Part shown: positions 3,481 through 63,240 of the stretch, piece by piece
Layout of the letters: every line of letters starts with the position of its first letter
Numbering within the stretch: position 1 is the stretch's first letter
Assembly (NCBI GenBank): GCA_964016885.1
Contig: OZ024745.1
Location: forward strand, 123,070,001 to 123,134,000
Origin: Eledone cirrhosa
Lineage: Eukaryota
Reading direction: 5' to 3'
DNA length: 64,000 nucleotides
The notes under the pieces: generated by a model
What the model was told of the DNA's origin: nothing
The model's input: only the letters and a program-made list of their open reading frames with translations
Database searches by the model: none
Translations under genes and position numbers: made by a program

Positions 3481-3820
3481 TCATCATCATCATCATCATC
3501 ATCATTTTACGTCCACTTTTCCCTGCTTGCAAGGGTGGGACGGGAACTGATGCTGGCTTGATTTCTACAGCTGGATGCCCTTCCTAACACCAACCTCATT
3601 TACAGTGAGTGCTGGGTGCTTTTTTGCCGTCGCACCTCCACGACCACTTTGCAGTGGAATGATAGGGACTGGGGTCCATCTCATTTCTACAGCTGAGTCA
3701 ACTGGAGCAATGTGAAATAAAGTGTCTTGCTCAAGGAAACAACACATCACCCGGCCTGAGAATTGAACTCACAACCTTTCGATTGCAAGGCCAATGCTCT
3801 AACCACTAAGCCATGTGCCT

Positions 3821-3822
<2 letters not shown>
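3481..3822 (-). mobile_element. Full-length tRNA-derived CORE-like SINE (family A) with (GAT)n tail
   Basis: A box TGGCTTAGTGG, B box GAGTTCAATTC, CORE-like CCTTGAGCAAGACACTT, tail GGGAAAAGTGGACGTAAAATGATGAT. At least 6 near-identical copies in the window. Confidence 0.88.
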
Positions 3823-8089: not shown

Positions 8090-9103
8090 TACTGGGAGGA
8101 TCTAAATACATTTTCTCAGTTCGAATGGAGCAATAATTATTAGTGGTTAGGTGCTTAAAAGGAGTGAAAAGGGAAGGCAACCCCTCTTTATTTAAAATGA
8201 GAGGAGAAAGGAGTTAACTAATGTCATGTTTATAGGTTATTGGTAGTGAGGTTTTATGTAGATTAAGAAGTTACAGGGGTTAGAGGCAATACGGTAAATA
8301 TCTGTAGGAGAGGGTGGTGGTGAGGAGCAAGTGAAGTGGTCACCTTAGGAAGCTTACTGTGTGTTAATTAAAGAGCCTTTCCATATTGGAGGGTTTATAG
8401 AATCTAACTGTTTATAGGAAGAGGTGAAGTGAGTGTTCAGGTGTGTTCTGTGTGAAATATTCTTAAACTGGGTTTTTCCACTTTTTAAGTATATATTTAG
8501 ACATGTGCAAGCCGTGGTTGAAGTAGTCTGCTCTCATATTTAGGCAGTTATTCATGGAGTGCAGTTCTTTTTAGGAAGTTCCATCTGTGCATGAATTCCT
8601 TGACTTCATTCTGTTTCCATAAGGCTTAGATCTCTAGAATCTTCCATTTAATGGAAAAAATCGGTGCCGCTATCTTTGAGGGTCCACATGTAAGTGGCTA
8701 GTATCATGGAAGATCTCTTGTCTGTGTGTCGGAAGGTCATTTCATGATTAAGAAAACAGCCTTTAAAGCAATCCTCTGACATTCCCACATATTTCCTGAC
8801 CTCCTGCTGCTGGTTCACTTGAGTCAAAATGATTTCTGCTTCATATACCAAGGTGGGTATGCTGCATTTTTGGTCAAGGGCAAATATGTTTCATCTTAGG
8901 CATGAGCAGCCTGATATGAGGGATCTCCTAATTTTGTTGGTGATTTTATACTTTTTGCACAGAAATAGCCAATTTCCACTGTATGGCAGTTATATATTTG
9001 CTTATTTGTATGGCCAACAGGGAAACGTTTATCTAAGAGTGCTAAGAACTTCTTTGTATATATATGTTGCACACACACAAATCTTGAAAGCTGCCTACAT
9101 ATA
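8090..9103 (-). mobile_element. Penelope-like element remnant (thumb/linker + GIY-YIG endonuclease + 3' UTR), pseudogenised
   Basis: 'KKFLALLDKRFPVGH...IYNCHTVEIGYFC', 'CPL', 'VYEAEII...KYVGMSEDCFKGCFLNHEMTF...LATYMWTLK' match the PLE GIY-YIG consensus; stops and frameshifts present. Confidence 0.85.
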
Positions 9104-10942: not shown

Positions 10943-11207
10943 TCTCAGACCGGGTGATGTGTTGTTTCCTTGAGCAAGACACTTTATTTCACATTGCTCC
11001 AGTTTACTCAGCTGTAGAAAAGGGACTGGGGTCCATATCATTCCACTGCAAAGTGGTCGTGGAGGTGCCACGTCAAAAAAGCACCCAGCACTCACTGTAA
11101 ATGAGGTTGGTGTTAGAAAGGGCATCCAGCTGTAGAAATCGAGCCACAATCAGTTCCCGTCCCACCCTTGCAAGCAGGGAAAAGCAGACGTAAAATGATG
11201 ATGATGA
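10941..11207 (+). mobile_element. SINE family A, 5'-truncated
   Basis: Matches 3481-3822. Confidence 0.85.
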
Positions 11208-26675: not shown

Positions 26676-27088
26676 TATATAATGAAAAATTAGAATCCAA
26701 ATGTCGATTCCAACCATTTCAGTTTGATTTCCAAAAGTATTTTCAAATGATACTCTTGAATATAATTCTGGAAATCAAGTGGAAATGGTTGGGCTCAACA
26801 TTGAGATACTACCTCAAAACTAAACCCATTCTACATCTCAGCATTCATTGAGTACTACTCTGATTTCTGGTCTTCCTGGCTCACTCCCCTCTACATATAT
26901 GTTATCATCATCATTACCATTATCATCGTCATCAATTTTGCGTAGATGTTTCCATGCTGGCATAGGTTGGACAGGATGTATGTGGGTAATGTTTTACAGC
27001 TAGTTCCCCTTTCATGATACTAACTTTTTACTCAATTCTTATGATGCAAGGATATGGTGTACCTAACACATAGCCCACAACTGGATAT

Positions 27089-27459
27089 GGTGGCACATGG
27101 CTTAGTGGTTAGAGCATTGGGCTTGCAATCGAAAGGTTGTGAGTTCAATTCTCGGACCGGGTGATGTGTTGTTTCCTTGAGCAAGACACTTTATTTCACA
27201 TTGCTCCAGTTTATTCAGCTGTAGAAATGAGATGATAGGGACTGGGGTCCCTATCATTCCACTGCAAAGTGGTCGTGGAGGTGCCACGGCAAAAAAGCAC
27301 CCAGCCCACACTGTAAAGTGGACGTGTAGGTGCCACGGAGAAAAAGTACCCAGCACTCACTGTAAATGAGGTTGGTGTTAGGAAGGGCATCCAGATGTAG
27401 AAATCAAGCCAGAATCAGTTGCCGTCCCACTCTTGCAAGCAGGGAAAAGTGGACGTAAA

Positions 27460-36624: not shown

Positions 36625-36918
36625 TTAGTGTTAGTTAATTCCAAAGAAAGAGCAAAGGAAAAAAGAGTGCTCTATGTATAGAACAGAGCTATTTAACTAG
36701 ATAGTGAACAACACAAAATATAACTACTCCATTACCAAAGGTAATCTCTCTATCTGATGAACGATCCAGACGCATGTTAATATTGTCCAGAGTCCTGAAA
36801 CCTTTGGTAGTGGAGTAGTTATATACTGTGTTGTTTACTTTCTAATTATATAGCTCTGTTCTATACATAGAGCACTCTTTTTTCCTTTCCCTTTTCTGTG
36901 GAATTATCTAACACTAAA
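36623..36918. mobile_element. Fold-back element (~115-bp arms) with central hammerhead
   Basis: Arms ~36623-36742/36800-36918; related fragment at 44670-44825. Confidence 0.7.
36748..36815 (+). ncRNA. Type-I hammerhead ribozyme motif
   Basis: Stem I CTCTAT/GTGGAG; CTGATGA; partly degenerate stem II; GAAA; stem III CC-TTT-GG; GUA site. Confidence 0.7.
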
Positions 36919-37334: not shown

Positions 37335-37423
37335 CACACTGCATCAGTGTAAGATTAATAAGTATATATATATATATAGTGAGGAAACATAAGTCAATTG
37401 CATGAACTCATAATCCTTTATTT

Positions 37424-37479
37424 ACTGCTATATATATTTCGATGATAGCCATTGAATGGCTATGACCTCATCAGGCAGT
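37424..37479 (-). ncRNA. Minimal type-I hammerhead ribozyme (intact core)
   Basis: Minus strand: ACTGC-CTGATGA-GGTCATAGCCAT-TCA-ATGGCTATCATC-GAAA-TATATA-TA|GCAGT. Confidence 0.85.
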
Positions 37480-37544
37480 TAGTCAGTTCTTAGATATGCC
37501 AGCTCTGTGTTTATAGTGTTGATGGTATCAGAGCCTTGGGACAT

Positions 37545-37894
37545 ATCATCATCATTTTTCATCATTTCATTTTACGTCCCGCTTTTTCCCTGCTTGCAAG
37601 GGTGGGACGGGAACTGATTCTGGCTTGATTTCTACAGCTGGATGCCCTTCCTAACACCAACCTCATTTACAGTGAGTGCTGGGTGCTTTTTTGCCGTGGC
37701 GCCGCCACGACCACTTTGCAGTGGAATGATAGGGACCCAAGTCCCTATCATCTCATTTCTACAGCTGAGTAAACTGGAGCAATGTGAAATAAAGTGTCTT
37801 GCTCAAGGAAACAACACATCACCCAGTCTGAGAATTGAACTCACAACCTTTCGATTGCAAGCCCAATGCTCTAACCACTAAGCCATGTGCCTCC
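37545..37894 (-). mobile_element. Full-length SINE family A
   Basis: Matches 3481-3822. Confidence 0.88.
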
Positions 37895-42458: not shown

Positions 42459-42489
<31 letters not shown>

Positions 42490-42589
42490 TTAAAGGTTAA
42501 ACAAGGTTCAATGAATAAATCAAAGAATAAAGTTTTACAATAGATTAGAAGCGCTCCACAGCAAAAATGGTTTTCCGGAGTTATTAATA

Positions 42590-42867
42590 TTAATTCAAAA
42601 TATTAACAAAAATAGCTATCTTCAACAGTACATCCTCATCAGATAAAATAAGATGATGCATGACATACCCTGACTAAGTAGATGGCTGAATTTTAACCAT
42701 CTACCATGACTGAATTTTAACCATCTACTTAGTCAGGGTATGTCATGTATCATCTTATTTTATCTGATGAGGACGTACTGTTGAAGATAGCTCAGTACCT
42801 CTGAAACATGTATAATAAAATATACTTGATCACACGAATGTTTATTTTTGTTAATATTTTGAATTAA
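42590..42867. mobile_element. Fold-back element with hammerhead
   Basis: Arms 42614-42685/42721-42792 plus outer arms 42590-42614/42843-42867. Confidence 0.7.
42756..42822 (+). ncRNA. Minimal type-I hammerhead ribozyme
   Basis: TATTTTAT-CTGATGA-GGACGTACTG...CAGTACCTCT-GAAA-CATGTA-TA|ATAAAATA (perfect 8-bp stem I). Confidence 0.8.
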
Positions 42868-44875
42868 AATATATATAAATATGTATATATATATAAATAT
42901 ATTTTACCAATATATATATATATATATATTTTAATAAATTTTAATATATATATTTTATAAATATATATATTTTAATAAATATTGTCTGTACAGCTAATAG
43001 TGATTTAGAGCAATACAATGTGAAATATATAGAAAAGTTCACTATTATTTTGACCTAGTTCTCCACAGAACAGCTCGATGGTATTAGGTGTGAAAAATAC
43101 TTGTTTCAAAGCAATCTTATATACAATATGTTCGCCAACCAACAATATCCAAGTTGAACATGTTAAGCAATAGAGGAATTAGGGTACTCTGAAGCAGTGA
43201 CATAGCTAGAGTGTGTGCTGCCTGGGGCAGCCCTTTAGTTTGCCACCCTTGGGTTCCCACAAAAAATATACATATTGCTCAGTGACTCACTCTTAAAGTT
43301 ATATATATACTAGAAATGTTTTCCATATACTGACGCGTATGTGTAAATGTGTGTGCATATGTGTATGTGTATGTGCATATATTTATAGGTATGAGTATAT
43401 AAATACAAACGCGCAAATACAGACTCACTTACAAAAACATGCACTCACAGACATATATTTAAACAAACACAGACGTAAAGAGAGAGGAGTAGTATGAGGT
43501 AGTCAAGCTACTACTCTCTCTTTACCTGTTGTGACAGAATCAGAAAAATTTATATATATATATATATATATAATATATCAGTGGCAAAAGGTAACCTGGA
43601 AAGCAGGGCATGCAGTTAAATCGCCATGGGCTGCTGACTGCGAGGTTCCTCTCTTCACTGGCGGCTCGCCTAATAGAGGTAACTGGCGAATCTCGCGAGG
43701 GCGCTTGGTTGTTCCAGTGCATTAGCGTCGCCATCACCCGAGCCAATTCTGCGAGTGTGCTGGCTTGCATCAAAATTCATTAGAGAGGTTGCCCAGTACT
43801 CCTCGCGACATTGCTGTCTTTTGCTCTGGTCTTGGCTCGGTTATTCACCCCTTCCTTTATATTTTCTTTAATATTGTAATATTAAAAGAATATATCTTTC
43901 TGGAAGAATCGCGAGCAATTTATAATGTTATCTAAGCATTTGTAATGTTATTTATCTATATATTTAAAACATTTGTTATGTCATTCTACTGTAAATTTAT
44001 TTATATGCTCTGTATAATAAACATTTTACACTTCCTTGTTCAGATGTAGATTTCATAGACTACAACTACAACTGCACTTGTATACTAACATACAATAGTC
44101 AGATTAGTGAGGGCTCCTTTCTGGCCTTAAACAGAGGAATATGTTCAACACATCTCTACAAAAGTAATTTTTTCCCATGGAAGGAGGTGACTACAGAACT
44201 AATGTATAGACTGAGTAGCTGTGAGCTAAGTATTATTCTCATGGACACAGTGACATGTCGATGATCTGATACCAACTGCTAACCATCCAATATCACCAAT
44301 GGATGGTCATATGTATAATAATCACTGCAGAATAATATAGAAACTACGTAATATGATGGCTGCAGCCTGATGATGACCATCATCCTCATAACATTAATTG
44401 GTGTAGGTTGGTTGTTGTTTGGCTGTGAGAGTTGGGAAAAGGTTTTGAAGTAAACGTTTGGTTTTTACTTTGTGTGGCATATGTTGATGCCCTAAGGATA
44501 GACACAGGTCTCTTGGAGATGCAGGTGCATGGCAGATATGATGAGGGACAGAGACCGCTGAAGAGAACTCGTCCATGGATCTCGGGAATTTTACCCACCC
44601 TAGATAGAGATAGAAAGATGTGTGGCATGGTTCTGGTGAGCAGGGTTGACTAGGTTTATGGATTTTCTTTTACATTATAAACAACACAATATAATTATTC
44701 CATTTCAGGAAACTAGATGATCCTTACAGAAATGTCCAGCTTGTTCATCATGTAAAATAGCTCTACACTATACATAGAGCACTCTTCTTTCATTTACCTT
44801 TTCTACGGAAATACATAGCACACATATATAAATATATAGCTAAGGTTGTCAACTTATATATATCAATCTCTGTCA

Positions 44876-44922
<47 letters not shown>

Positions 44923-45011
44923 TCCATATATATATATGTATTATATACATATATATATATGTGGTCGCTTGGAGATGCAGGATATGGTGGTAATGATGAA
45001 GGATAGAAACC

Positions 45012-45169
45012 CAGGGCCGTCTTAACGCTTGGGCATGCTGGGCAGTTGCCCGGGGCCCCACGAGGATAGGGGGCCCATTTGTATTTTTATTCCTGTGAGT
45101 GGTTGTGTAGGTAGGGGCCCCAGTGCTCTGCTTTGCCCAGGGGCCTATAATGCTGTTAAGACAGCCCTG
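45012..45169. mobile_element. hAT-type MITE with 8-bp TSD
   Basis: TIR CAGGGCCGTCTTAAC/GTTAAGACAGCCCTG; TSD TAGAAACC/TAGAGGCC; empty paralogous site at ~44549. Confidence 0.85.
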
Positions 45170-45766
45170 TAGAGGCCGCTGGAGAGAACTCGTCCAATTC
45201 TTGGGAATTTTACCCGCCCTAGAGAGATATATATATGTGTATGTGTGTGTGTATATATGTGTATATATACATGTGTGAGTGTGTGTGTGTGTGTATATAT
45301 GTGTATATATACATGTGTGAGTGTGTGTGTGTGTGTATATATGTGTATATATACATGTGTGAGTGTGTGTGTGTGTGTATATATGTGTATATATACATGT
45401 GTGAGTGTGTGTGTATATATATATATATATGGGATAACAAGCTATCATTTTAGGTAATCCGGTTAAAGGTTGTGAGTACTCTGTACTATGGATAGTTTTA
45501 ACGTACGGCGTTGTTTGACTCAACAAGAGGTTTCCTTAGTTAGGTAACAAGTTTGTGACAATTCCTATACAGGTCATTCTTGGAGTAATAATAGTGAAGG
45601 AGTGAAGAATAACATGGTTGGCTGTACAAAAGGTTTTTATTTACAGTATTAACAATTGTTTCATTGATGAGGTGAGTCTAAATGCTGCTGATCAAGAAAC
45701 AATTGTTAATACTGTAAATAAAACCCTTTTTGTACAGCCAACCATGTTATTCTTCACTCTTTCACT

Positions 45767-45804
<38 letters not shown>

Positions 45805-46092
45805 TTTATGTCTGCTTTTCCCTGCTTGCAAGGGTGGGACGGGAACTGATTCTGGCTTGATTTCTACAGCTGGATGCCCTTCCTAACACCAACCCCATTT
45901 ACAGTGAGTGCTGGGTGCTTTTTTGCCGTGGCACCTCCACGACCACTTTGCAGTGGAATGATAGGCACCACAGTCCCTATCATCTCATTTCTACAGCTGA
46001 GTAAACTGGAGCAATGTGAAATAAAGTGTCTTGCTCAAGGAAACAACACATCACCTGGTCTGAGAATTGAACTCACAACCTTTCTATTGCAA
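45767..46092 (-). mobile_element. SINE family A, head truncated
   Basis: Matches other A copies. Confidence 0.85.
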
Positions 46093-46603
46093 TAAATATA
46101 TATATATATATATATATGAAATTATGCAATGTAAATCATGTTATGTTATATAATAATAATAATAATGAAATTATTGTGTAAAGTGCTCAGGTGCACCACA
46201 ACTCGTCAATATAGTACATAGAATAATACACAAATGTCAGGGAAACAACAACTAAGCAACTGAGTGACAGTCTTAAACAAGGTGCAATAATTTACAGGTT
46301 TGATATAACCTGTCTTACAACAAACATATTTAAGTTGACCATATTATGCTGAAAGAACTCAGTACAAGAAGCATGTAACTCCAAACTGAGTGTGTAAATT
46401 GACAGAACCCATTATATTCATATAAAGAAAGTGTATGCAAATCTATGTATGTTTTTCTTTCTTCATCAATTCATACATGTATAAGTATGTATATAGTATG
46501 TATATAGTATGTATAAGTATGTATATAGTATGTATATAGTATGTATATATTAAGTATATCTATACAGTCACAAGCATATATACTCAAAAAGACATGCACA
46601 CAC

Positions 46604-46672
<69 letters not shown>

Positions 46673-46833
46673 CATATACACATATATATATACATATGCA
46701 CACATATATATACATATACACACATATATATACATATAAACATATACATATATATATACATATACACACACACATATATATATATATAAATACATACATA
46801 TATACATATAAATATATATATATATACATATAC

Positions 46834-46865
<32 letters not shown>

Positions 46866-47253
46866 ATATATATATATACCCAAGTCAATGGGAAAGATTA
46901 TATTAGTGTGTATGACATTATTGTCCATATTTATATGGATCCATTCTGTAAGCAAATTTCCTTTCCCTGAATACCAACGCAACACATGCTGCTACATCTC
47001 ATATAAAGCACACACCAAACACACCTTTTGTAACACTTGTACGCATATAAGTTTCCTGTGTTCTCTTCTTAATTGAAAATATATGAAAGTCAATGTAATC
47101 ATTGGTCTCTGAAGCTGTCAAACAACCTGAAATGTTTGAAGGTTGCTGGTGTTTCTATTGGTGTATAGTTATCAGGGGTATATAAATATATAAATATATA
47201 AATATTTAAATATATAAATGCACACAGATATACAAACATATATAGATAGATAC

Positions 47254-47286
<33 letters not shown>

Positions 47287-47547
47287 TATATATATATAGA
47301 TACATACATATATATATATCTATATATATATATTTCGTTTCTGAATTTGTTTAGCAAGATTCTTTATCTGAAATCGTGTGTTGAAACCGATATTGTTATA
47401 CTTTGGGAGGGTCATGTTGCCAATAAGAAACACACGCACCAGTTGCTTTCACTTCAATTTATTATATATTTATAAATTTACAAATTTATAAATTTATAAA
47501 TTTCTGGTTGGTTGGTTGGTTCCACAACCAGATAGTTGTTTATATAT

Positions 47548-47592
47548 AGTCATAGTCCTTTCGTCACACACTCTATGACCTCTTCAGTAACT
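47548..47592 (-). ncRNA. Minimal hammerhead ribozyme motif (family H)
   Basis: AGTTA-CTGAAGA-G-GTCATA-GAGTG-TGTGAC-GAAA-GGAC-TA|TGACT. Confidence 0.7.
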
Positions 47593-47661
47593 GGGGATTC
47601 CTTTCTTTGTTTCTGTGCCTCCCCTTTCTCTGTCCTACGCCATTTTGTTTCTCAAATCCCC

Positions 47662-47706
47662 AGCCACTGAAGAGGTCACAGAGTGTGTGACGAAAGGACT
47701 ATGACT
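47662..47706 (+). ncRNA. Minimal hammerhead ribozyme motif (family H)
   Basis: AGCCA-CTGAAGA-G-GTCACA-GAGTG-TGTGAC-GAAA-GGAC-TA|TGACT. Confidence 0.68.
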
Positions 47707-47860
47707 ATATATAAACAACTATCTGGTTGTGAAACCAACCAACCAACCAGAAATTTATAAATTTATAAATTTGTAAATTTATAAATATATAATAAATTGA
47801 AGTGAAAGCAACTGGTGCGTGTGTTTCTTATTGGCAACATGACCCTCCCAAAGTATAACA

Positions 47861-47893
<33 letters not shown>

Positions 47894-47932
47894 GATACAT
47901 ATATATATCTATATATATATATATATAGATAC

Positions 47933-47971
<39 letters not shown>

Positions 47972-48011
47972 ATATTAAATAAATGGAAGCTATATTTAAA
48001 AAGAAAATATT

Positions 48012-48076
48012 TATATTATTATATATATTTCAAGGGTAACCAAGACAACATTGGTACGCTTTCATCAGATAAAATA
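48012..48076 (-). ncRNA. Minimal type-I hammerhead ribozyme
   Basis: TATTTTAT-CTGATGA-AAGCGTACCAA...TTGGTTACCCTT-GAAA-TATATA-TA|ATAATATA. Confidence 0.78.
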
Positions 48077-48446
48077 CAAAGTTTGTTTTATAAATAGAGA
48101 CATACCCATAAAAAATCATACCTTATTGGTTGGAAATTGGCTGGATAGTGGAAATATATTAGGGATTATTGAAACTTATATGTGAATATGCAAATTTATG
48201 TACTTATATATATATATATATATTGAGTGAGAGAGAGAGAGAAGGAATGTGAGAGGGGGGTGAGCAAAAGAAGTGGAAGTAGGAGACAGGCTAGAGGTAA
48301 CACTACACATATATATGAAACAATAAATCTGTGTATATCTACACATTACTTTGATATTTTCAGAGACAGCAAGAAATCACTGTTTTGGGAGGTTTCTTTG
48401 CTCTTCTATGTAGAAGTCCAACCCTCTCTGTACTTATATATACACA

Positions 48447-48761
48447 TATTGGCCTTGCAATCAAAAGGTTGTGAGTTCAATTCTCAGACCGCGTGATGTG
48501 TTGTTTCCTTGAGCAAGACACTTTATTTCACATTGCTCCAGTTTACTCAGCTGTAGAAATGAGATGATAGGGACTGGGGTCCATATCATTCCACTGTAAA
48601 GTGGTCGTGGAAGTGTGACGGCAAAAGAGCACCCAGCACTCACTGTAAATGAGGTTGGTGTTAGGAAGGGCATCCAGCTGTAGAAATCAAGCCAGAATCA
48701 GTTTCCATCTCACCCTTGCAAGCAGGGAAAAAGCGGACGTAAAATGAAATGATGATGATGA
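48447..48761 (+). mobile_element. SINE family A
   Basis: Matches other A copies. Confidence 0.85.
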
Positions 48762-48801
48762 TATATAAACATGTTTATATTTGGATGTCTGTTTACAACA
48801 G

Positions 48802-48848
<47 letters not shown>

Positions 48849-48854
48849 CTGACA

Positions 48855-49181
48855 AAGTGTGGTAAGGAACCAGGTGGACCATAGCGCACCAGAGTACTCG
48901 ATACCTAGAGTAGTAGAGTGGGAAATAGGAAAAGTGTCAGAACACAAATGGCTGAGCTCCGGCCGTTTCTGGACTAGATTCCTATATATATATTTATACA
49001 CACACACACACATATATCATCATCATCATCATCATCCATCTTCCATGCTAGCATGGGTAGGACGAGCTATCCCGTTGTAAGGAATCAGGTCAGGGGACCA
49101 AGATTTACTCACACAAAACTGATTTGGGCTACATATATATATACACACACATATATATATATATATATGTGTGTGTGTATA

Positions 49182-49255
<74 letters not shown>

Positions 49256-49463
49256 ACCCTTGCAAGCAGGGAAAAGCAGACGTAAAGTGATGATGATTAT
49301 ATATATATATATATATATATAAGAACCAGTAAGACCCCGACAGCTGAGCTCAAGCCGTTTCGACGGGGTCTTACTGGTTCCTATTACCCACTCTACTACC
49401 CCAAGTATTGAGTACTTTGGTGCGTTATGGTCCACCTGGTTCCTTACCACATTTCCTTCGTTA
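48855..49463. mobile_element. Cluster of Penelope-like P1 termini (48855-48983 minus; 49321-49463 plus with 16-bp fold-back)
   Basis: Shared ACTCTACT..C.AAGTAT.GAGTACT.TGGTGCG.TATGGTCCACCTGGTTCCTTACCAC. Confidence 0.6.
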
Positions 49464-50237
49464 TATATATATATATATTTATATATATATGCTGCTATTT
49501 CTAGCATATTGAGAAACTACATAGAGGTATAGTCTTCATCCTCATTGATGTCATTCTAGCTTGCAGTGTTTTATATATTGATACATATATATATAAGAGA
49601 ATAAATGAGATTAGAGATAGAATCATATACAGATACATACCTAAGCAGATTAACTCCCTATCAATATTGGTTATTGACTATCTTATATATAGTCAAATAG
49701 ATAAAAAATGACAGGAAAAAACATTGAACCTTGCTATAAACTATTGTAGTTTCTGTAGAGGGCTGGAGTGTGAGATGTCCCCGTTGAAGTGTAGCGAAAA
49801 AGAGAGGGGGGACAGGGGCAAGAAGGGGGGGATATATATATATATATATATATATAGTAATAATTGTTTCTACGTTAGACACAAGGCCAGCAATTACCCA
49901 GTGTATTACTGGTTATAGTAATAATAAATGTGAAGACTAACCCATGCTAGCATAGAAGATGGACGTTAAACGATGATGATGATGATGATATATTTGTAAA
50001 TATATATATTTGTATATATATATATATATTTGTATATATATATATACATATGTATATATATATATACATATATATACATATACATATGTATATATATACA
50101 TATATATATACATGCATATATATGTACACACATATATACATTCATGTATATATACATATATATATATACATGTATATATATACATGTATATATATATACA
50201 TGTATGTATATATATATATATATACATGTATATATAT

Positions 50238-50478
50238 AATCTTCAGGTTCATATTCCGTGGTGACAGTCAAGTTTGCAATTTTCAACTGTTGAAAATTGC
50301 AAACTTGACTGTCACCACAGAATATGAACCTGAAGATTGCAAAAGCATGAAAGTACTTGTTCAATTAACACTTAACAGTTAATATTCTACCATACTATTT
50401 CATTCTAATACCATTATAAATTTTAAAGGATTGTAAATAAAACGAGTAAATCAGACAAAGTCGGAATTCCTTTTATTA
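50238..50478 (+). mobile_element. Fold-back element (50-bp arms 50238-50287/50289-50338) with hammerhead
   Basis: Near-perfect palindrome flanked by (TA)n. Confidence 0.7.
50325..50363 (+). ncRNA. Very compact (39-nt) hammerhead motif with palindromic GTAC stem III
   Basis: TGAAC-CTGAAGA-TTGC-AAAA-GCAT-GAAA-GTAC-TT|GTTCA. Confidence 0.78.
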
Positions 50479-50570
50479 ATATATATATATATATATATAT
50501 ATATCGTTTCTGAATTTGTTTAGCAAGATTCTTTATCTGAAAATGTGTGAAAACGAGAAAAGAATCCCCA

Positions 50571-50613
50571 GTCACTGAAGAGGTCACAGAATGTGTGACG
50601 AAAGAACTATGAC
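50571..50613 (+). ncRNA. Minimal hammerhead motif (family H, within rearranged element 50504-50763)
   Basis: GTCA-CTGAAGA-G-GTCACA-GAATG-TGTGAC-GAAA-GAAC-TA|TGAC. Confidence 0.7.
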
Positions 50614-50803
50614 AATATATGAACAACCATCCGGTTGTGGAAGCAACCAACCGGAAATTTATAAATTCTTAAATTTATAAATTTAACTTATAATAAATTG
50701 GAGTGAAAGCAACTGGTGCGTGTGTTTCTTATTGGCAACATGACCCTCCCAAAGCATAACAATATATATATATATATATATATATAGTAATAGTAATAAT
50801 AAT

Positions 50804-50856
<53 letters not shown>

Positions 50857-51257
50857 TATACATGTATCATCACCATCATCATCATCGATTAATGTCTATC
50901 TTCCATGCTAGCATGGGTTGGACGGGTTTATCCCATTTAGAGGGTTGGGTGACCCTGTCTCACTCATATAGGAGTGTTTCTGGCTGGTTGCCCTTCCTAA
51001 CGTTTAATTAGGGAAAGTTAGTTGATTTAGAATCAGCCAACATATAACAGATGTCAAGCACTCAACAGTTTATGTTTATCTGGAGTTTTGTTATAATAAT
51101 AAACAAATAAGACAGTTACTTTAGTCCATCTCTATTTATTTTATTATACGTATTTCAAACATATATGGCTTATGTATAACATAAGTCAAAACATATATAT
51201 TATATATATATGATATATATATAATATATAATATATATAATATATAATATATATATC

Positions 51258-51536
51258 TAAGTCTAAAGTCTGTCTGAAGCCAGAAGGCTCATCAGGTTGG
51301 TGTTTATCCCGGTTTCATGGCATGAAGCGACTGAGAGTACAAGACTCCCCCCTGGACAGGACGCCAGTCCATCACAGGTTTAAACCTCCAGCTATTACTG
51401 GTACTCATTTTCAGCTGAGTATACTGGAGCAACGTGAAATGAAGTGTTTTGCTCAAGAACACAACACACAACCCAGGAATCGAACCCACAACATTATGGT
51501 CGTAAGTCCAACACCCTTACCACTAGGCCACGTACC
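51258..51536 (-). mobile_element. tRNA-derived CORE-like SINE of another subfamily (GATGGACTGGCGTCC...GAAACCGGGATAA body)
   Basis: A box TGGCCTAGTGG, B box GGTTCGATTCC, CORE-like block; diverged relative at 12510-12720. Confidence 0.75.
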
Positions 51537-52122
51537 TTTTTTTTTAGTGTGTGTGTGTCTGTGTCTTTTTGTGTGTCTGTGTGTGTTTGTGTGTGACAGC
51601 TCACACCTATGCAGGTTTAGCTGGCCTCTTCCAAGGTATATCTCGTTGGAGGTGTCTTGGGTAATTTAATGATAGGGACCCCAGTCCCTATCATCTCATT
51701 TCTACAGCTGAGTAAACTGGAGCAACGTGAAATAAAGTGTCTTGCTCAAGGAAACAACACATCACCTGGTCTGAAAATTGAACTCACAACCTTTCGATTG
51801 CAAGCCCAATGCTCTAACCACTAAGCCATGCGCCTTCACTGTTTGTATGCGTGTCTATGTGTGTCTGTTTGTGTGTGTCTGTGTGTGTATGTATGAGTGT
51901 GCCTGTGTGTATGTGAAGTGTTTGTCCCTCACCAATGTTATTACAGTGTAAACCCCAATGTGATAGATTTCAGAATGAAATGTTAGTAAATATGAAGAGA
52001 GAAAGGCTGTGTTGAAACAAGCACAGCTCTGTTAAGTAATGACTTAAATAAATCACATCTACATACATAGCATATAACTAGTATATATATATATACTAGT
52101 TATATATACATACACACATCTT

Positions 52123-52164
<42 letters not shown>

Positions 52165-52214
52165 AATGTGTATATATATATATACATACATATATATACA
52201 CACACACGCAAGTT

Positions 52215-52279
<65 letters not shown>

Positions 52280-52282
<3 letters not shown>

Positions 52283-52400
52283 TAACCATAGTAAGTAAGG
52301 TATTCAATACATAGTAGAGTATATACCAAATTTAATATAGAATATAGAAATGGCTCCTACAGAACTAGAACTGTTTCATTCGAATGAAACAGTTCTAGTT
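52280..52400 (-). mobile_element. Penelope-like family P2 terminus ending in a perfect 38-bp palindrome
   Basis: Palindrome 52363-52400; contains hammerhead 3' half GAAA-CAG...CTG-TA. Confidence 0.6.
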
Positions 52401-52848
52401 TAATCTCTTCTTCATTCACCTTATATAATTTAATCTCTTCTTCATTCACCTTATATCCTTAATATTTAAATTTTAATAATACATAATAAATTCCTTTTCG
52501 CACATTTTATTAAACCCTTCAATATATAAACCTTAAATAAATACTATTCTTAATTCCTTTTTCTTTAATCATAAACATCACCATTCATAAACCTCATTAA
52601 CTTTTAATTTCAACATTTTTTTAAATTATGTATTATCTTACAACGGTTTTTTTTAATTTTCTCTGTGAGACAGTGTTTCTCAGTATTAAAGGCTATCTCT
52701 CCCTCTCTCTCACTCATTTCTCCTCCTCTCTCATCCTTCCTTCTTATACTCCTCCCCCGTCATCCTTTATTTTCTTTCTTCCTCTTCCGCACCTTCCCCC
52801 CCCCCCTTCTCCTTTTTTTTCCCAATCTCATATATCCATCTTACTTTA

Positions 52849-52919
52849 TTTTTCATATGATGAGAATGCAAATATCATCCCATGATGATATTTGCTTTTG
52901 AAATGCGCATAATAAAATA
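52849..52919 (+). ncRNA. Hammerhead motif, core mutated (C3>A)
   Basis: TTTTCAT-ATGATGA-GAATGCAAATATCATC-CCAT-GATGATATTTGCTTTT-GAAA-TGCGCA-TA|ATAAAATA. Confidence 0.72.
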
Positions 52920-53084
52920 CATGGAACTCTTTTAACCATCTTTTGATCTTATATTATATATATACATATATATATATATATACACATATATATATGTATA
53001 TATATATATATAAAATCAAGGTTTAGCAAATAGAGAAAAAGTTTTAAAATAAATTTTTAAAAGTTCACTGTACTTACTATTTGT

Positions 53085-53169
53085 GCCTTTATTGCACGAT
53101 TTCAAACCCCAAAATAAATAGATAATCCAAACGGATTTCCATTGAGAAAGGGAATTTTCGTCAGACGGC
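53085..53169 (-). ncRNA. Hammerhead motif with long stem II
   Basis: GCCGT-CTGACGA-AAATTCC...GGGGTTT-GAAA-TCGTGCAA-TA|AAGGC. Confidence 0.62.
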
Positions 53170-53570
53170 TTTTCTCAGTCGGAGAATGAAATTCTCGAGT
53201 TCAAATCACAAACTGGCGCCATACAAAACTGTTCCCGAATGAGAGTGATATATCTATATATATCTATATATATATATATATATATATTGATTATATATAT
53301 ATTGACTATATATATTACTTGACTAATAGTTTCTATCATTTGATTGGTACTTTATTCTATCATTTGATTGGTACTTTATTCTATCATTTGATTGGTACTT
53401 TATTCTATCAACCATTGGAAGGTTAAAAGACAAATTTGTCCTCACTGAGATTAGAACTGAAATTTGATCTGGCAGTGCTGCAATATTCTATCAGGTTTTG
53501 GTTGATGGAATGGGATCAATTATATAGATTCCAGTATTGGAACATATTCTATTAACCCATATTCTATTAA

Positions 53571-54562
53571 CCCTTTAGTATTTACATTACTCTATATTTA
53601 CTATTGTATTTTCATGATAAAGACTTTACCTCACATAACATTTACATTACTCTATATTTACTATTGTATTTTCATGATAAAGACTTTACCTCACATAACA
53701 TTTACATTACTCTATATTTACTATTGTATTTTCATGGTAAAGACTTTACCTCACATAACATTTACATTACTCTATATATACTATTGTATTTTCATGGTAA
53801 AGACTTTACCTCACATAACATTTACATTACTCTATATTTACTATTGTTTTTTCATGGTAAAAACTTTACCTCACATAACATTTACATTACTCTATATTTA
53901 CTATTGTATTTTCATGGTAAAGACTTTACCTCAAATAACATTTACATTACTCTATATTTACTATTGTATTTTCATGATAAAGACTTTACCTCACATAACA
54001 TTTACATTACTCTATATTACTATTGTATTTTCATGGTAAAGACTTTACCTCACATAACATTTACATTACTCAATATTGTATTTTCATGGTAAAGATTTTA
54101 CCTCACATAACATTTACATTACTCTATATTTACTATTGTATTTTCATGGTAAAGACTTTACCTCACATAACATTTACATTACTCAATATTTACTATTGTA
54201 TTTTCATGGTAAAGACTTTACCTCACATAACATTTACATTACTCAATATTTACTATTGTATTTTCATGGTAAAGACTTTACCTCACATAGCATTTACATT
54301 ACTCTATATTTACTATTGTATTTTCATGGTAAAGACTTTACCTCACATAGCATTTACATTAGTCTATATATACTATTGTATTTTCATGGTAAAGACTTTA
54401 CCTCACAAATTATTTCACATAATATCGAATCTATGAGATTTTTATGTTGTTTATTTTGAGAACAATACTTTAAAATCAGTATGAGTGGCCAGTTAAGTTC
54501 AGTGTGAACAGAAAGAGTTCAGAGAATTCTGGTCGGATATGGCTGGTTTAAATGCTAAAGGG
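53571..54562. mobile_element. Family-M TTAA MITE with an internal 60-bp unit amplified ~14x
   Basis: Intact TTAA-CCCTTTAG...CTAAAGGG-TTAA ends; array 53581-54410. Confidence 0.9.
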
Positions 54563-54599
54563 TTAAAGCAGAATTTCAACTCAAATAATTAAAAATAAT

Positions 54600-55153
54600 A
54601 GTTGGTTCTAATATTAAATTCTAATTTAGGCATAAGGGCTATCAAATATTTTGTAGGGGAGAAGAGAAAGTCAATTAAATTGACCCCTGTATTTCACTGA
54701 TTCTTTATTTTATCAACCTTGGAATGATGAGAGGTATAGGTAACGTGGATAGGATTTGAACTCACAATGTAAAGAGCAATGACTAAACACTGCAAGACAT
54801 TTTGTCTCATGCTCAAATGATTCTAACAATTCACCACCCAATAAAAATCATAATAATAATTATTTCTTATATAGGCACAAGGCCAGAAATCTTTTGGGGG
54901 GAAGGGAAAGTCGATTAAATCGACCCCAGTACATTACTGGTGCTTATTTTATCGACCCCGTAAGGATGAAAGGCAAAGTTGACCTCGGGATTTGAACTCA
55001 GATCATTACTGGTACTTTATTTTATCTACCGCGTAAGGATGAAAGGCAAAGTTGACCTTGGCGGGATTTTAACTCAGACCGCAAGGGGCCATAACTCTAT
55101 GCTACAAAGCATGGTGTCGTCAAACGCTCTACCAATTCTACCAATCCACTGCC
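54600..55153 (-). mobile_element. Family-B SINE cluster
   Basis: Matches other B copies. Confidence 0.8.
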
Positions 55154-55379
55154 TATAATGATGATGATGATGATGATAATGATACAAATAATGATAATAA
55201 CAACAATAACATCAAGTGAAATTGAAATCTACATCAAATAAATAACTGCAAGTAAAATCTTATACATCTGAAGTTTATATGACACACCTACCAAATTATA
55301 CAAACGAGAGATTTATACTCATTCTTATAATAGGCTATTCATTTATATCTGACTGAATGAGTGCAAGTGTGTGTGTATG

Positions 55380-55423
<44 letters not shown>

Positions 55424-55516
55424 TATGCATATATATATACTTGTAGATATGTATATGTATATATATGTATATGTATATATACATACACATATATATATAT
55501 ATATATATATAGATGT

Positions 55517-55577
<61 letters not shown>

Positions 55578-55706
55578 GAAGTTCTATTTAAATTGTTGGG
55601 ATACAACAAGCAAATATTTTTATAACTGATATAAAGCACTCAACAAATTATTAAAGTAAAAATACGATATATTAACAAATGGAAACTATATTTATAAAAC
55701 CATATT

Positions 55707-55771
55707 TATTTCATTATACATATTTCAAGGACACCAAGTTAAATTATGGTGTGCTTTCATCAGATAAAATA
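55707..55771 (-). ncRNA. Minimal type-I hammerhead ribozyme (intact core)
   Basis: TATTTTAT-CTGATGA-AAGCACACCA...TGGTGTCCTT-GAAA-TATGTA-TA|ATGAAATA. Confidence 0.8.
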
Positions 55772-56014
55772 TAATATAGATCAGTTTTATAAATAAATAT
55801 TGACATACCCTTAAAAGAATGCGACCATTTCTGTTGGAAGCTCCCGGATATTTTATTATATGTATAATAAAATATATGGAACTCTTATAACCATCTTTAT
55901 TTCATCTTTATATATACTCCAGTTCTACCAACTGTTGAGTGCTACTTATCTGATATATGCATAGTTTTATTGCTCTACCATATTACTCACCTTCTATATA
56001 TATATATGTGTGTG

Positions 56015-56096
<82 letters not shown>

Positions 56097-56100
<4 letters not shown>

Positions 56101-56643
56101 ATACTTTGGGAGGGTCATGTTGCCAATAAGAAACACACGCACCAGTTGTTTTCACTTCAATTTATTATAAATTAAATTTATAAATTTAGGAATTTATAAA
56201 TTTCCGGTTGGTTGGTTGGTTCCACAACCAGACGATTGTTCATATATTGTCAAAGTTCTTTCGTCACACATTCTGTGACCTCTTCAGTGACTGGGATTCT
56301 TTTCTTTGTTTTTGTGCCTCTCCTTTGTTCTGTCCTACGCCATCTTGTTTTTGTGTGTGTTGACAGAATAAAGGAGAGGCACAAAAACAAAGAAAAGAAT
56401 CCCCAGTCACTGAAGAGGTCACAGAATGTGTGACGAAAGAACTTTGACAATATATGAACAATCGTCTGGTTGTGAACCAACCAACCAACCAACCGGAAAT
56501 TTATAAATTTAATTTATAATAAATTGAAGTGAAAGTAACTGGTGCGTGTGTTTCTTATTGGCAACATGACCCTCCCAAAGCATAACAATATCGGTTTCAA
56601 CACACGTTTTCAGATAAAGAATCTTGCTAAACAAATCCAGAAA

Positions 56644-62973: not shown

Positions 62974-63240
62974 CTGTTTCTCATCCTTGGTTTTGTTGCT
63001 TGTAGTTACTACTGCTCGATCACAATAGCTCCCTTCCAACAGGGCCACTCCTGACGGCCGGCTTGCAGAATCATTCTCATAGTAAAACAGGAAATTCTGG
63101 TAAAGTATGAACCACCTGAGCTGCCACTTGCCTGTGTCAGAACTTTTCTTGTACAGGTAACCACACAGAGTGTTCTCCTGGCGAGCCTTTTGGGCCAAAT
63201 ATAAAATTTGGCTCTCATTGAAACGAATTGCTTTTTGCAT
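62974..63240 (-). CDS. RASGRF1: Ras guanine nucleotide-releasing factor (Ras-GRF) first coding exon, N-terminal PH domain (89 codons)
   Basis: MQKAIRFNESQILYLAQKARQENTLCGYLYKKSSDTGKWQLRWFILYQNFLFYYENDSASRPSGVALLEGSYCDR...KDEKQ closely matches the vertebrate RASGRF1/2 N-terminus. ATG at 63240, phase-0 donor CAG|GTGTGA. Probably a single invertebrate co-orthologue of RASGRF1/2. Confidence 0.93.

Follow-up and report, generated by a model that had tools for sequence, protein, structure and literature searches.

Hammerhead ribozymes carried by Penelope elements of animals are the closest described systems to the motifs discussed here. Cervera and de la Peña 2014 (PMC4209133) reported such hammerheads in both pseudo-long terminal repeats (pLTRs) and as solo remnants, with compensatory changes in families, a palindromic stem III and weak cleavage as dimers. 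Palindromic stem III loops were also noted by Perreault 2011 (PMC3088659), and a 2019 review that cites Lünse et al. restates the dimer model (PMC6765202). The DNA analysed is a stretch of 64,000 nucleotides from the octopod Eledone cirrhosa (contig OZ024745.1, positions 123,070,001 to 123,134,000), which is called the window throughout. It contains five hammerhead motifs. It is very probable from their sequences that they are truncated pLTR ends of diverged Hydra-like Penelope families, and that the 8-nt stem III palindrome of these families forms an active dimer that would cut the element RNA. In the source elements a hammerhead lies in each flanking repeat around a reverse transcriptase (RT)/GIY-YIG frame, the stems covary between families, the core is conserved, and inserted copies decay almost neutrally.

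The motifs share with the metazoan dimer-type Penelope hammerheads a type I fold, a short palindromic stem III, a long stem II and one copy per flanking repeat (PMC4209133, PMC3088659). They are also alike in being mostly solo remnants, in having compensatory family consensuses and in their proposed action as dimers. Unlike the published Penelope hammerheads, those of E. cirrhosa have an even 8-nt palindrome in eight states and a stem II made of 3 bp, an invariant pyrimidine-pyrimidine (Y·Y) mismatch and an upper stem. Further differences are the lack of an extra base between positions 9 and 10.1, a 10.1-11.1 pair that varies, and a copy number of at least 86,481 in the 3.0-Gb genome. The elements resemble the Hydra clade of Penelope elements with a C-terminal endonuclease (Craig et al. 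2021, PMC8557442) in DKT, a RWK/RWR-type motif, a CxCx5C linker, CxxC and CxH around E/N, the lack of CCHH, (TA)n targets and the hammerhead, a likeness drawn from protein motifs, targets and hammerhead. The unit length here is 3,555-3,709 bp and published Hydra elements are mostly below 3 kb, which is a tendency. Published Hydra hammerheads have a stem III of 3-4 bp, a loop of 1-3 nt and an unbroken stem II, unlike the families here; Hydra-1_Obim, one octopus Hydra family, has a 4-bp stem III, a 1-nt loop and an unbroken stem II, and is described without a pLTR. Non-LTR retrozymes (PMC7229834; Li et al. 2026 preprint) are similar in carrying type I hammerheads in very high copy number. However, retrozymes are non-coding tandem repeats of 170-400 nt, and the motifs here are solo or inverted ends of coding elements. 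The axolotl has 126,247 type I motifs, so that the count here is no record, and amphibian retrozymes are more efficient as dimers.

Both the class and the dimer model are known from earlier publications, and the advance is incremental. What is new is a Hydra-like radiation in an octopod and this structural variant of the hammerhead. A literature search returned no paper describing these octopod hammerheads, and the paper on repeats of O. vulgaris contains neither the word hammerhead nor the word ribozyme. It may be that the Y·Y mismatch or the covariation of the central pair has been shown before, in Lünse 2017 or in figures of the supplements to Cervera 2014 and to Craig 2021 (Figs S7, S8). 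Published support for dimer action of Penelope hammerheads in living cells consists mostly of weak in vitro cleavage. The eight palindromes of this genome form a natural series with U·G and U·U intermediates and covarying adjacent bases. The series is an unusually clean record and direct comparative evidence of selected intermolecular pairing, and it is a ready panel for comparing matched with mismatched dimers. The genome also shows a large Hydra-like radiation in an octopod, with ribozymes that Rfam misses.

Motifs in the window and their source elements

A descriptor scan found five type I motifs in the window, compared with a mean of 0.02 and a maximum of 1 in 100 dinucleotide shuffles. 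Each motif runs in the order stem I, CUGAUGA, stem II, GAAA, hexamer, UA, stem I. The original prediction had placed four hammerheads at 42756(+), 48012(-), 52849(+) and 55707(-), where all four were located (H1 to H4); H5 is additional. The motifs and the element pieces that hold them are:

42756-42822, plus strand: hammerhead H1, lineage c33; core at 42764, GAAA at 42803, hexamer CATGTA at 42807; predicted cut after 42814
42469-42880, plus strand: element remnant of H1, 87% identity to L208
48012-48076, minus strand: hammerhead H2, lineage c40; core intact, a single mismatch in stem I, hexamer TATATA; predicted cut after 48020
about 47960-48201: element remnant of H2
52849-52919, plus strand: hammerhead H3, c25-like lineage; core change C3A, 2-nt insertion in stem I, hexamer TGCGCA
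about 52470-52965: element remnant of H3
55707-55771, minus strand: hammerhead H4, lineage c37; core intact, hexamer TATGTA; predicted cut after 55715
about 55560-55850: element remnant of H4
37421-37482, minus strand: hammerhead H5, lineage c18; hexamer TATATA
37363-37546: element remnant of H5, 97% identity to L100
55850-56099, plus strand: inverted pLTR 3' piece of a c25-like family, beginning at a fold-back junction (55850-55875) centred on the stem III palindrome

The core CUGANGA, the GAAA and the NUH are intact in H1, H2, H4 and H5, all with an AUA triplet. The H3 core reads ATGATGA rather than CTGATGA, and with this change and its stem I insertion the H3 ribozyme is likely dead. A common stem I, TATTTTAT/AT(A/G)AAATA, had been assigned to all four copies. 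It is intact in H1 and H4, but H2 has a T·T mismatch (ATAATATA) and the insertion in H3 falls in the 5' strand. Covariation of stem I is not seen among these four, as no double change is present. The stem II strands differ between copies and still pair, as had been proposed, and their covariation was confirmed on copies and on lineages. The strands quoted earlier form the upper stem; below them are three basal pairs and, at position 4, the Y·Y mismatch, which had been omitted. The hexamers described as self-complementary or nearly so read as quoted in all four copies. The CATGTA of H1 disrupts the 15.2-16.2 pair, and its family has TATGTA in 23 of 28 copies found independently of the ribozyme. 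This hexamer is therefore counted as decay and not as a functional variant.

In an alignment of the five copies 93% of cells pair and both sides have changed in 12 of 18 pairs. None of 500 shuffles came up to these values, and slid registers gave 29-55%. Every double change in stem I comes from H5, whose stem I differs (ACTGC/GCAGT) and whose C·C mismatch is the same as in the others. Rfam hammerhead models gave no match in the window at the gathering score, none among the best 150 of 446 rows of the window scan, and none at E<=10 when H1 and H4 were searched singly. Minimum-energy folds of single copies recovered stems I and II in four of five (H3 misfolds), with z from -0.7 to -2.8; being weak, they are left out of the support.

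The coding part of the source elements is a GIY-YIG frame, which was first met between two inverted hammerhead copies and led to an open frame of 809 residues. Copies of this family (L061) are 93-98% alike in the endonuclease, so that the family is young. The ribozyme lies about 0.9 kb downstream of the frame, and fuller copies have a second ribozyme on the same strand about 250-290 nt upstream. Three near-complete elements with both flanking repeats present (L062, L067, L074) have direct-repeat spacings of 3,555, 3,709 and 3,676 bp, which places a hammerhead in both pLTRs around the RT/GIY-YIG frame. Inverted 5' hammerhead copies are common. The protein has DKT, YRDD, CxCx5C, CxxC and CxH motifs and, judged by eye, no CCHH. 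DKT is present in P0002 and in all 5 element pieces that returned the DK motif; RWK occurs in 2 of these pieces, RWR in 3 and RWI in P0002. The nearest protein homologues are 30-42% identical and are unnamed or misnamed, and Pfam gave no match on the frame of about 800 residues. At another locus (L028), about 145-620 nt downstream of the hammerhead, there is a second GIY-YIG frame of a different kind, which has a CxxC-type motif and suggests another Penelope clade in the genome.

For each of the five window copies, the lineage has an open reading frame (ORF) upstream. The frame of the H1 lineage has about 50% endonuclease identity, and the H2 (43-60%), H4 (46-59%) and H5 (33-44%) lineages each have their own diverged frame. 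Between lineages ORF identity is only about 35-70%, while core and fold persist. The link between the exact variant of H4 and its lineage is a stretch of 370 bp with 86% identity. Two ORF links were set aside, one as a nested insertion (c22_L065) and one as a long branch (c40_L237).

The window copies themselves are remnants of 180-500 bp with no frame between them, and the four of the original prediction are independent insertions, not partners. The H1 remnant consists of an inverted 5' piece (42469-42685) that holds only the 5' half of the ribozyme and a sense pLTR end that starts at 42693 and continues into (TA)n. Of 92 copies of the c25 type, 84 have their ends in one of two zones, which lie 100-109 and 190-199 nt past the start of the core, and TA-rich sequence follows the end in 74 of the 92, as for insertion into (TA)n. 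Two other arrangements were considered and rejected. The four copies are not partners in one element, as they belong to different families, lie on mixed strands and have no ORF between them. Nor do they form a tandem retrozyme array, as they are solo or inverted and tied to a coding element. A weak match to the element endonuclease at 8657-8926 on the minus strand (28%, E=0.002) is possibly an old element remnant.

Covariation between lineages

When the search pattern included the shared stem I, 29,680 sites in the genome matched exactly (control 0); when stem I was left out, 86,481 did (control 197). Patterns for other stem I types gave 2,829, 422 and 1,771 further matches, which overlap the 86,481 in part. 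The four inner bases of the hexamer were left free in these patterns. Clustering of 392 distinct motifs, taken from the window and from 330 loci, gave 61 clusters; nine were discarded by eye as chance or mis-parsed, and 23, each with at least two copies not selected by hexamer, were used as lineages.

Covariation was found across these 23 consensuses. Positions 1-3 and 5-7 of stem II are paired in 127 of 138 cells, compared with 34-46% when slid, and a given pair shows up to three types of double change. At position 4 each of the 23 lineages has C·C, C·U or U·C, and this was not required by any search. Pairs 1-4 of stem I are standard in 23 of 23, although several search patterns imposed pairing there. 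Stems I and II of a type I hammerhead are thus both backed by covariation, that of stem I being partly imposed by the searches.

The three hexamer pairs are standard in 22, 23 and 22 of the 23 lineages. Eight hexamers recur, TATATA, TATGTA, TACGTA, TGCGCA, TGATCA, TGTGCA, TGTACA and CATGTG, and all are self-complementary when G·U is allowed. Among matches from the first 6.7 Mb of one contig, 72 of 77 hexamers are self-complementary, compared with 15% by chance, and among the lineage consensuses 21 of 23 are. In the CATGTG family (L304-L329) the triplet is GUC and the long stem II is mismatched in part; this family accounts for the majority of the 100 matches listed among the 1,771. Hexamers of the TT..AA and TC..GA kinds were considered as further families and rejected: they have 660 matches (control 63), and the 100 listed are single-step decay or chance. 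The central hexamer pair varies as U-A, U·G, C-G and A-U though its two bases adjoin. Adjacent bases are unable to pair within one molecule, and their covariation therefore supports selection on a dimer in the source elements. Genome-wide, TATGTA has 27,129 matches and its mutational mirror TACATA has 207, spread across many families. The computed energy of stem III is +2.4 to +4.7 kcal/mol for the monomer and -2.2 to -10.5 for the homodimer. On a tree of the endonuclease, the base of which is weakly supported, the U·G centre arises in three clades and a G-C middle pair in two. In simulations, the chance of six branches all remaining palindromic lies between 1e-4 and 1e-6 according to the mutation model used.

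Decay was followed in 56 of 58 copies that had been found by protein or upstream DNA, the ribozyme not being used. Substitutions number 47/3,825 (1.23%) in the ribozyme and 112/8,483 (1.32%) in the flanks (p=0.73). As insertions decay about neutrally, selection acts mainly on the replicating source elements. Singleton substitutions on the sense strand include 99 T>C and 43 A>G overall, and 31 and 9 in the 3' untranslated region alone. The excess of T>C over A>G is seen in L032-L067 compared with L061.

The original prediction had drawn from four copies that selection acts, in the source elements, on RNA structure and on the forming of dimers. This is supported by lineage consensuses that covary in stems I, II and III, by the covariation of the central bases and by the near-neutral decay. 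The four copies by themselves would have been insufficient, and two of the variants quoted from them are decay.

Proposed dimer action and its alternatives

How could such a palindrome act? Two copies, which may sit about 3.6 kb from each other in the 5' and 3' pLTRs of a single transcript or belong to two transcripts, would pair through the 8-nt palindrome, exchange strands and cut after AUA, or after GUC in the CATGTG family. Cutting would release a unit-length RNA that is possibly circularised. Reverse transcription may then be primed at TA-rich spots 100-200 nt past the core, on a nicked (TA)n target. Such priming would account for most insertions being short 3' ends with one ribozyme. Insertions end 50-150 nt past the cut site, so the template must cross the site, either uncut or religated as a circle, and a circle has been proposed by Cervera and de la Peña (PMC4209133).

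Several observations weigh against dimer action or against the evidence for it. TGTTCA, with a U·U centre, is an amplified sub-lineage (11 of 100 among the matches listed; its mirror TGAACA has 0), so that complementarity is not strict; it may be a step between TGTGCA or TGTACA and TGATCA. Two clusters of 2 copies have non-palindromic majority hexamers, both as ties. Core and stem I decay slightly more slowly than the flanks (12/1,624, 0.74%, compared with 1.32%, p=0.049). Several search patterns required stem I to pair, and partial stem II pairing was demanded by the descriptor. The lineages are akin, so the shuffle p-values are non-independent and overstate independence. The tree is based on 150 endonuclease-domain columns with weak basal support, and its six branches were picked by hand. 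In addition, invertebrate hammerheads with a 2-bp stem III and a tetraloop can cleave as monomers (PMC7229834).

This last point bears on the first rival, in which the ribozyme cleaves as a monomer through tertiary contacts of an extended stem I bulge with stem II, the loop palindrome being incidental. In c25, c37, c40 and c41 a distal stem I helix is predicted past an internal loop, and the stem II mismatch never varies, which might suit a contact point. The mismatch is a candidate for a tertiary contact, which it may form with the extended stem I bulge according to the predicted structure. Monomer cleavage is nevertheless improbable as the explanation of the motifs, since it leaves unexplained the eight self-complementary hexamers, the covariation of adjacent loop bases and the ratio of TATGTA to TACATA.

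Mutation without selection is a second rival and a very improbable one. The wobble-biased palindromes would then reflect A-to-I editing written into cDNA, CpG decay or inheritance from a few master elements. RNA editing is heavy in cephalopods, one sense-strand A>G turns TATATA into TATGTA, and genome counts mirror few master elements. However, the T>C excess of the copies is the opposite of what editing would need, and editing was rejected as the origin of TATGTA. CpG decay predicts TG and CA centres equally, whereas lineage centres are TG in 8 and CA in 0, and TGCGCA, TGATCA and CATGTG require change on both sides.

The least probable rival is that the palindrome works at the DNA or cDNA level, in template switching or as an endonuclease site, with the hammerhead fold hitch-hiking: 42 fold-back junctions genome-wide are centred exactly on the palindrome (a raw count, 32 with TGCGCA, the strongest palindrome), but these are just 42 sites among more than 86,000 motifs, the G·U-type hexamers TATGTA, TGTGCA and CATGTG are no DNA palindromes, and the catalytic core is conserved in all lineages.

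The RasGRF intron and other features of the window

One host gene feature lies in the window:

62974-63240, minus strand: first coding exon of RasGRF (PH domain), 100% identity over 89 residues to Octopus bimaculoides RasGRF

The next RasGRF exon is about 230 kb away, so that all five motifs lie inside one intron. H2, H4 and H5 are in sense to the RasGRF pre-mRNA. No strand bias was found among the 8 motifs of the first intron (4 sense, 4 antisense, with one doubtful row dropped), which are too few to test.

The palindromes fall into four groups by compatibility, UAUAUA/UAUGUA, UGCGCA/UGUGCA/UGUACA, UGAUCA, and CAUGUG. It is conceivable, though improbable, that each family has in its stem III palindrome a pairing code of its own, resembling a retroviral dimerisation signal, with co-resident families kept incompatible to avoid cross-activation, and that compatible fossils lying in sense in one intron, H2, H4 and H5 of RasGRF for example, still pair and cut the host pre-mRNA. 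If so, tens of thousands of dead copies would make up a dimer-gated layer of RNA processing in octopods.

Other repeats are present in the window. Copies of a tRNA-headed short interspersed element lie at 37571-37894, 3506-3822, 45805-46091, 48448-48746, 10943-11197 and 27087-27459. Short inverted-repeat elements in (TA)n lie at 56098-56586, 47308-47864 and 36625-36917; these are possibly remnants of other Penelope families, and no ribozyme was detected in them. Broken frames at 819-2091 on the minus strand resemble, as judged by eye, the reverse transcriptase region of a non-LTR retrotransposon.

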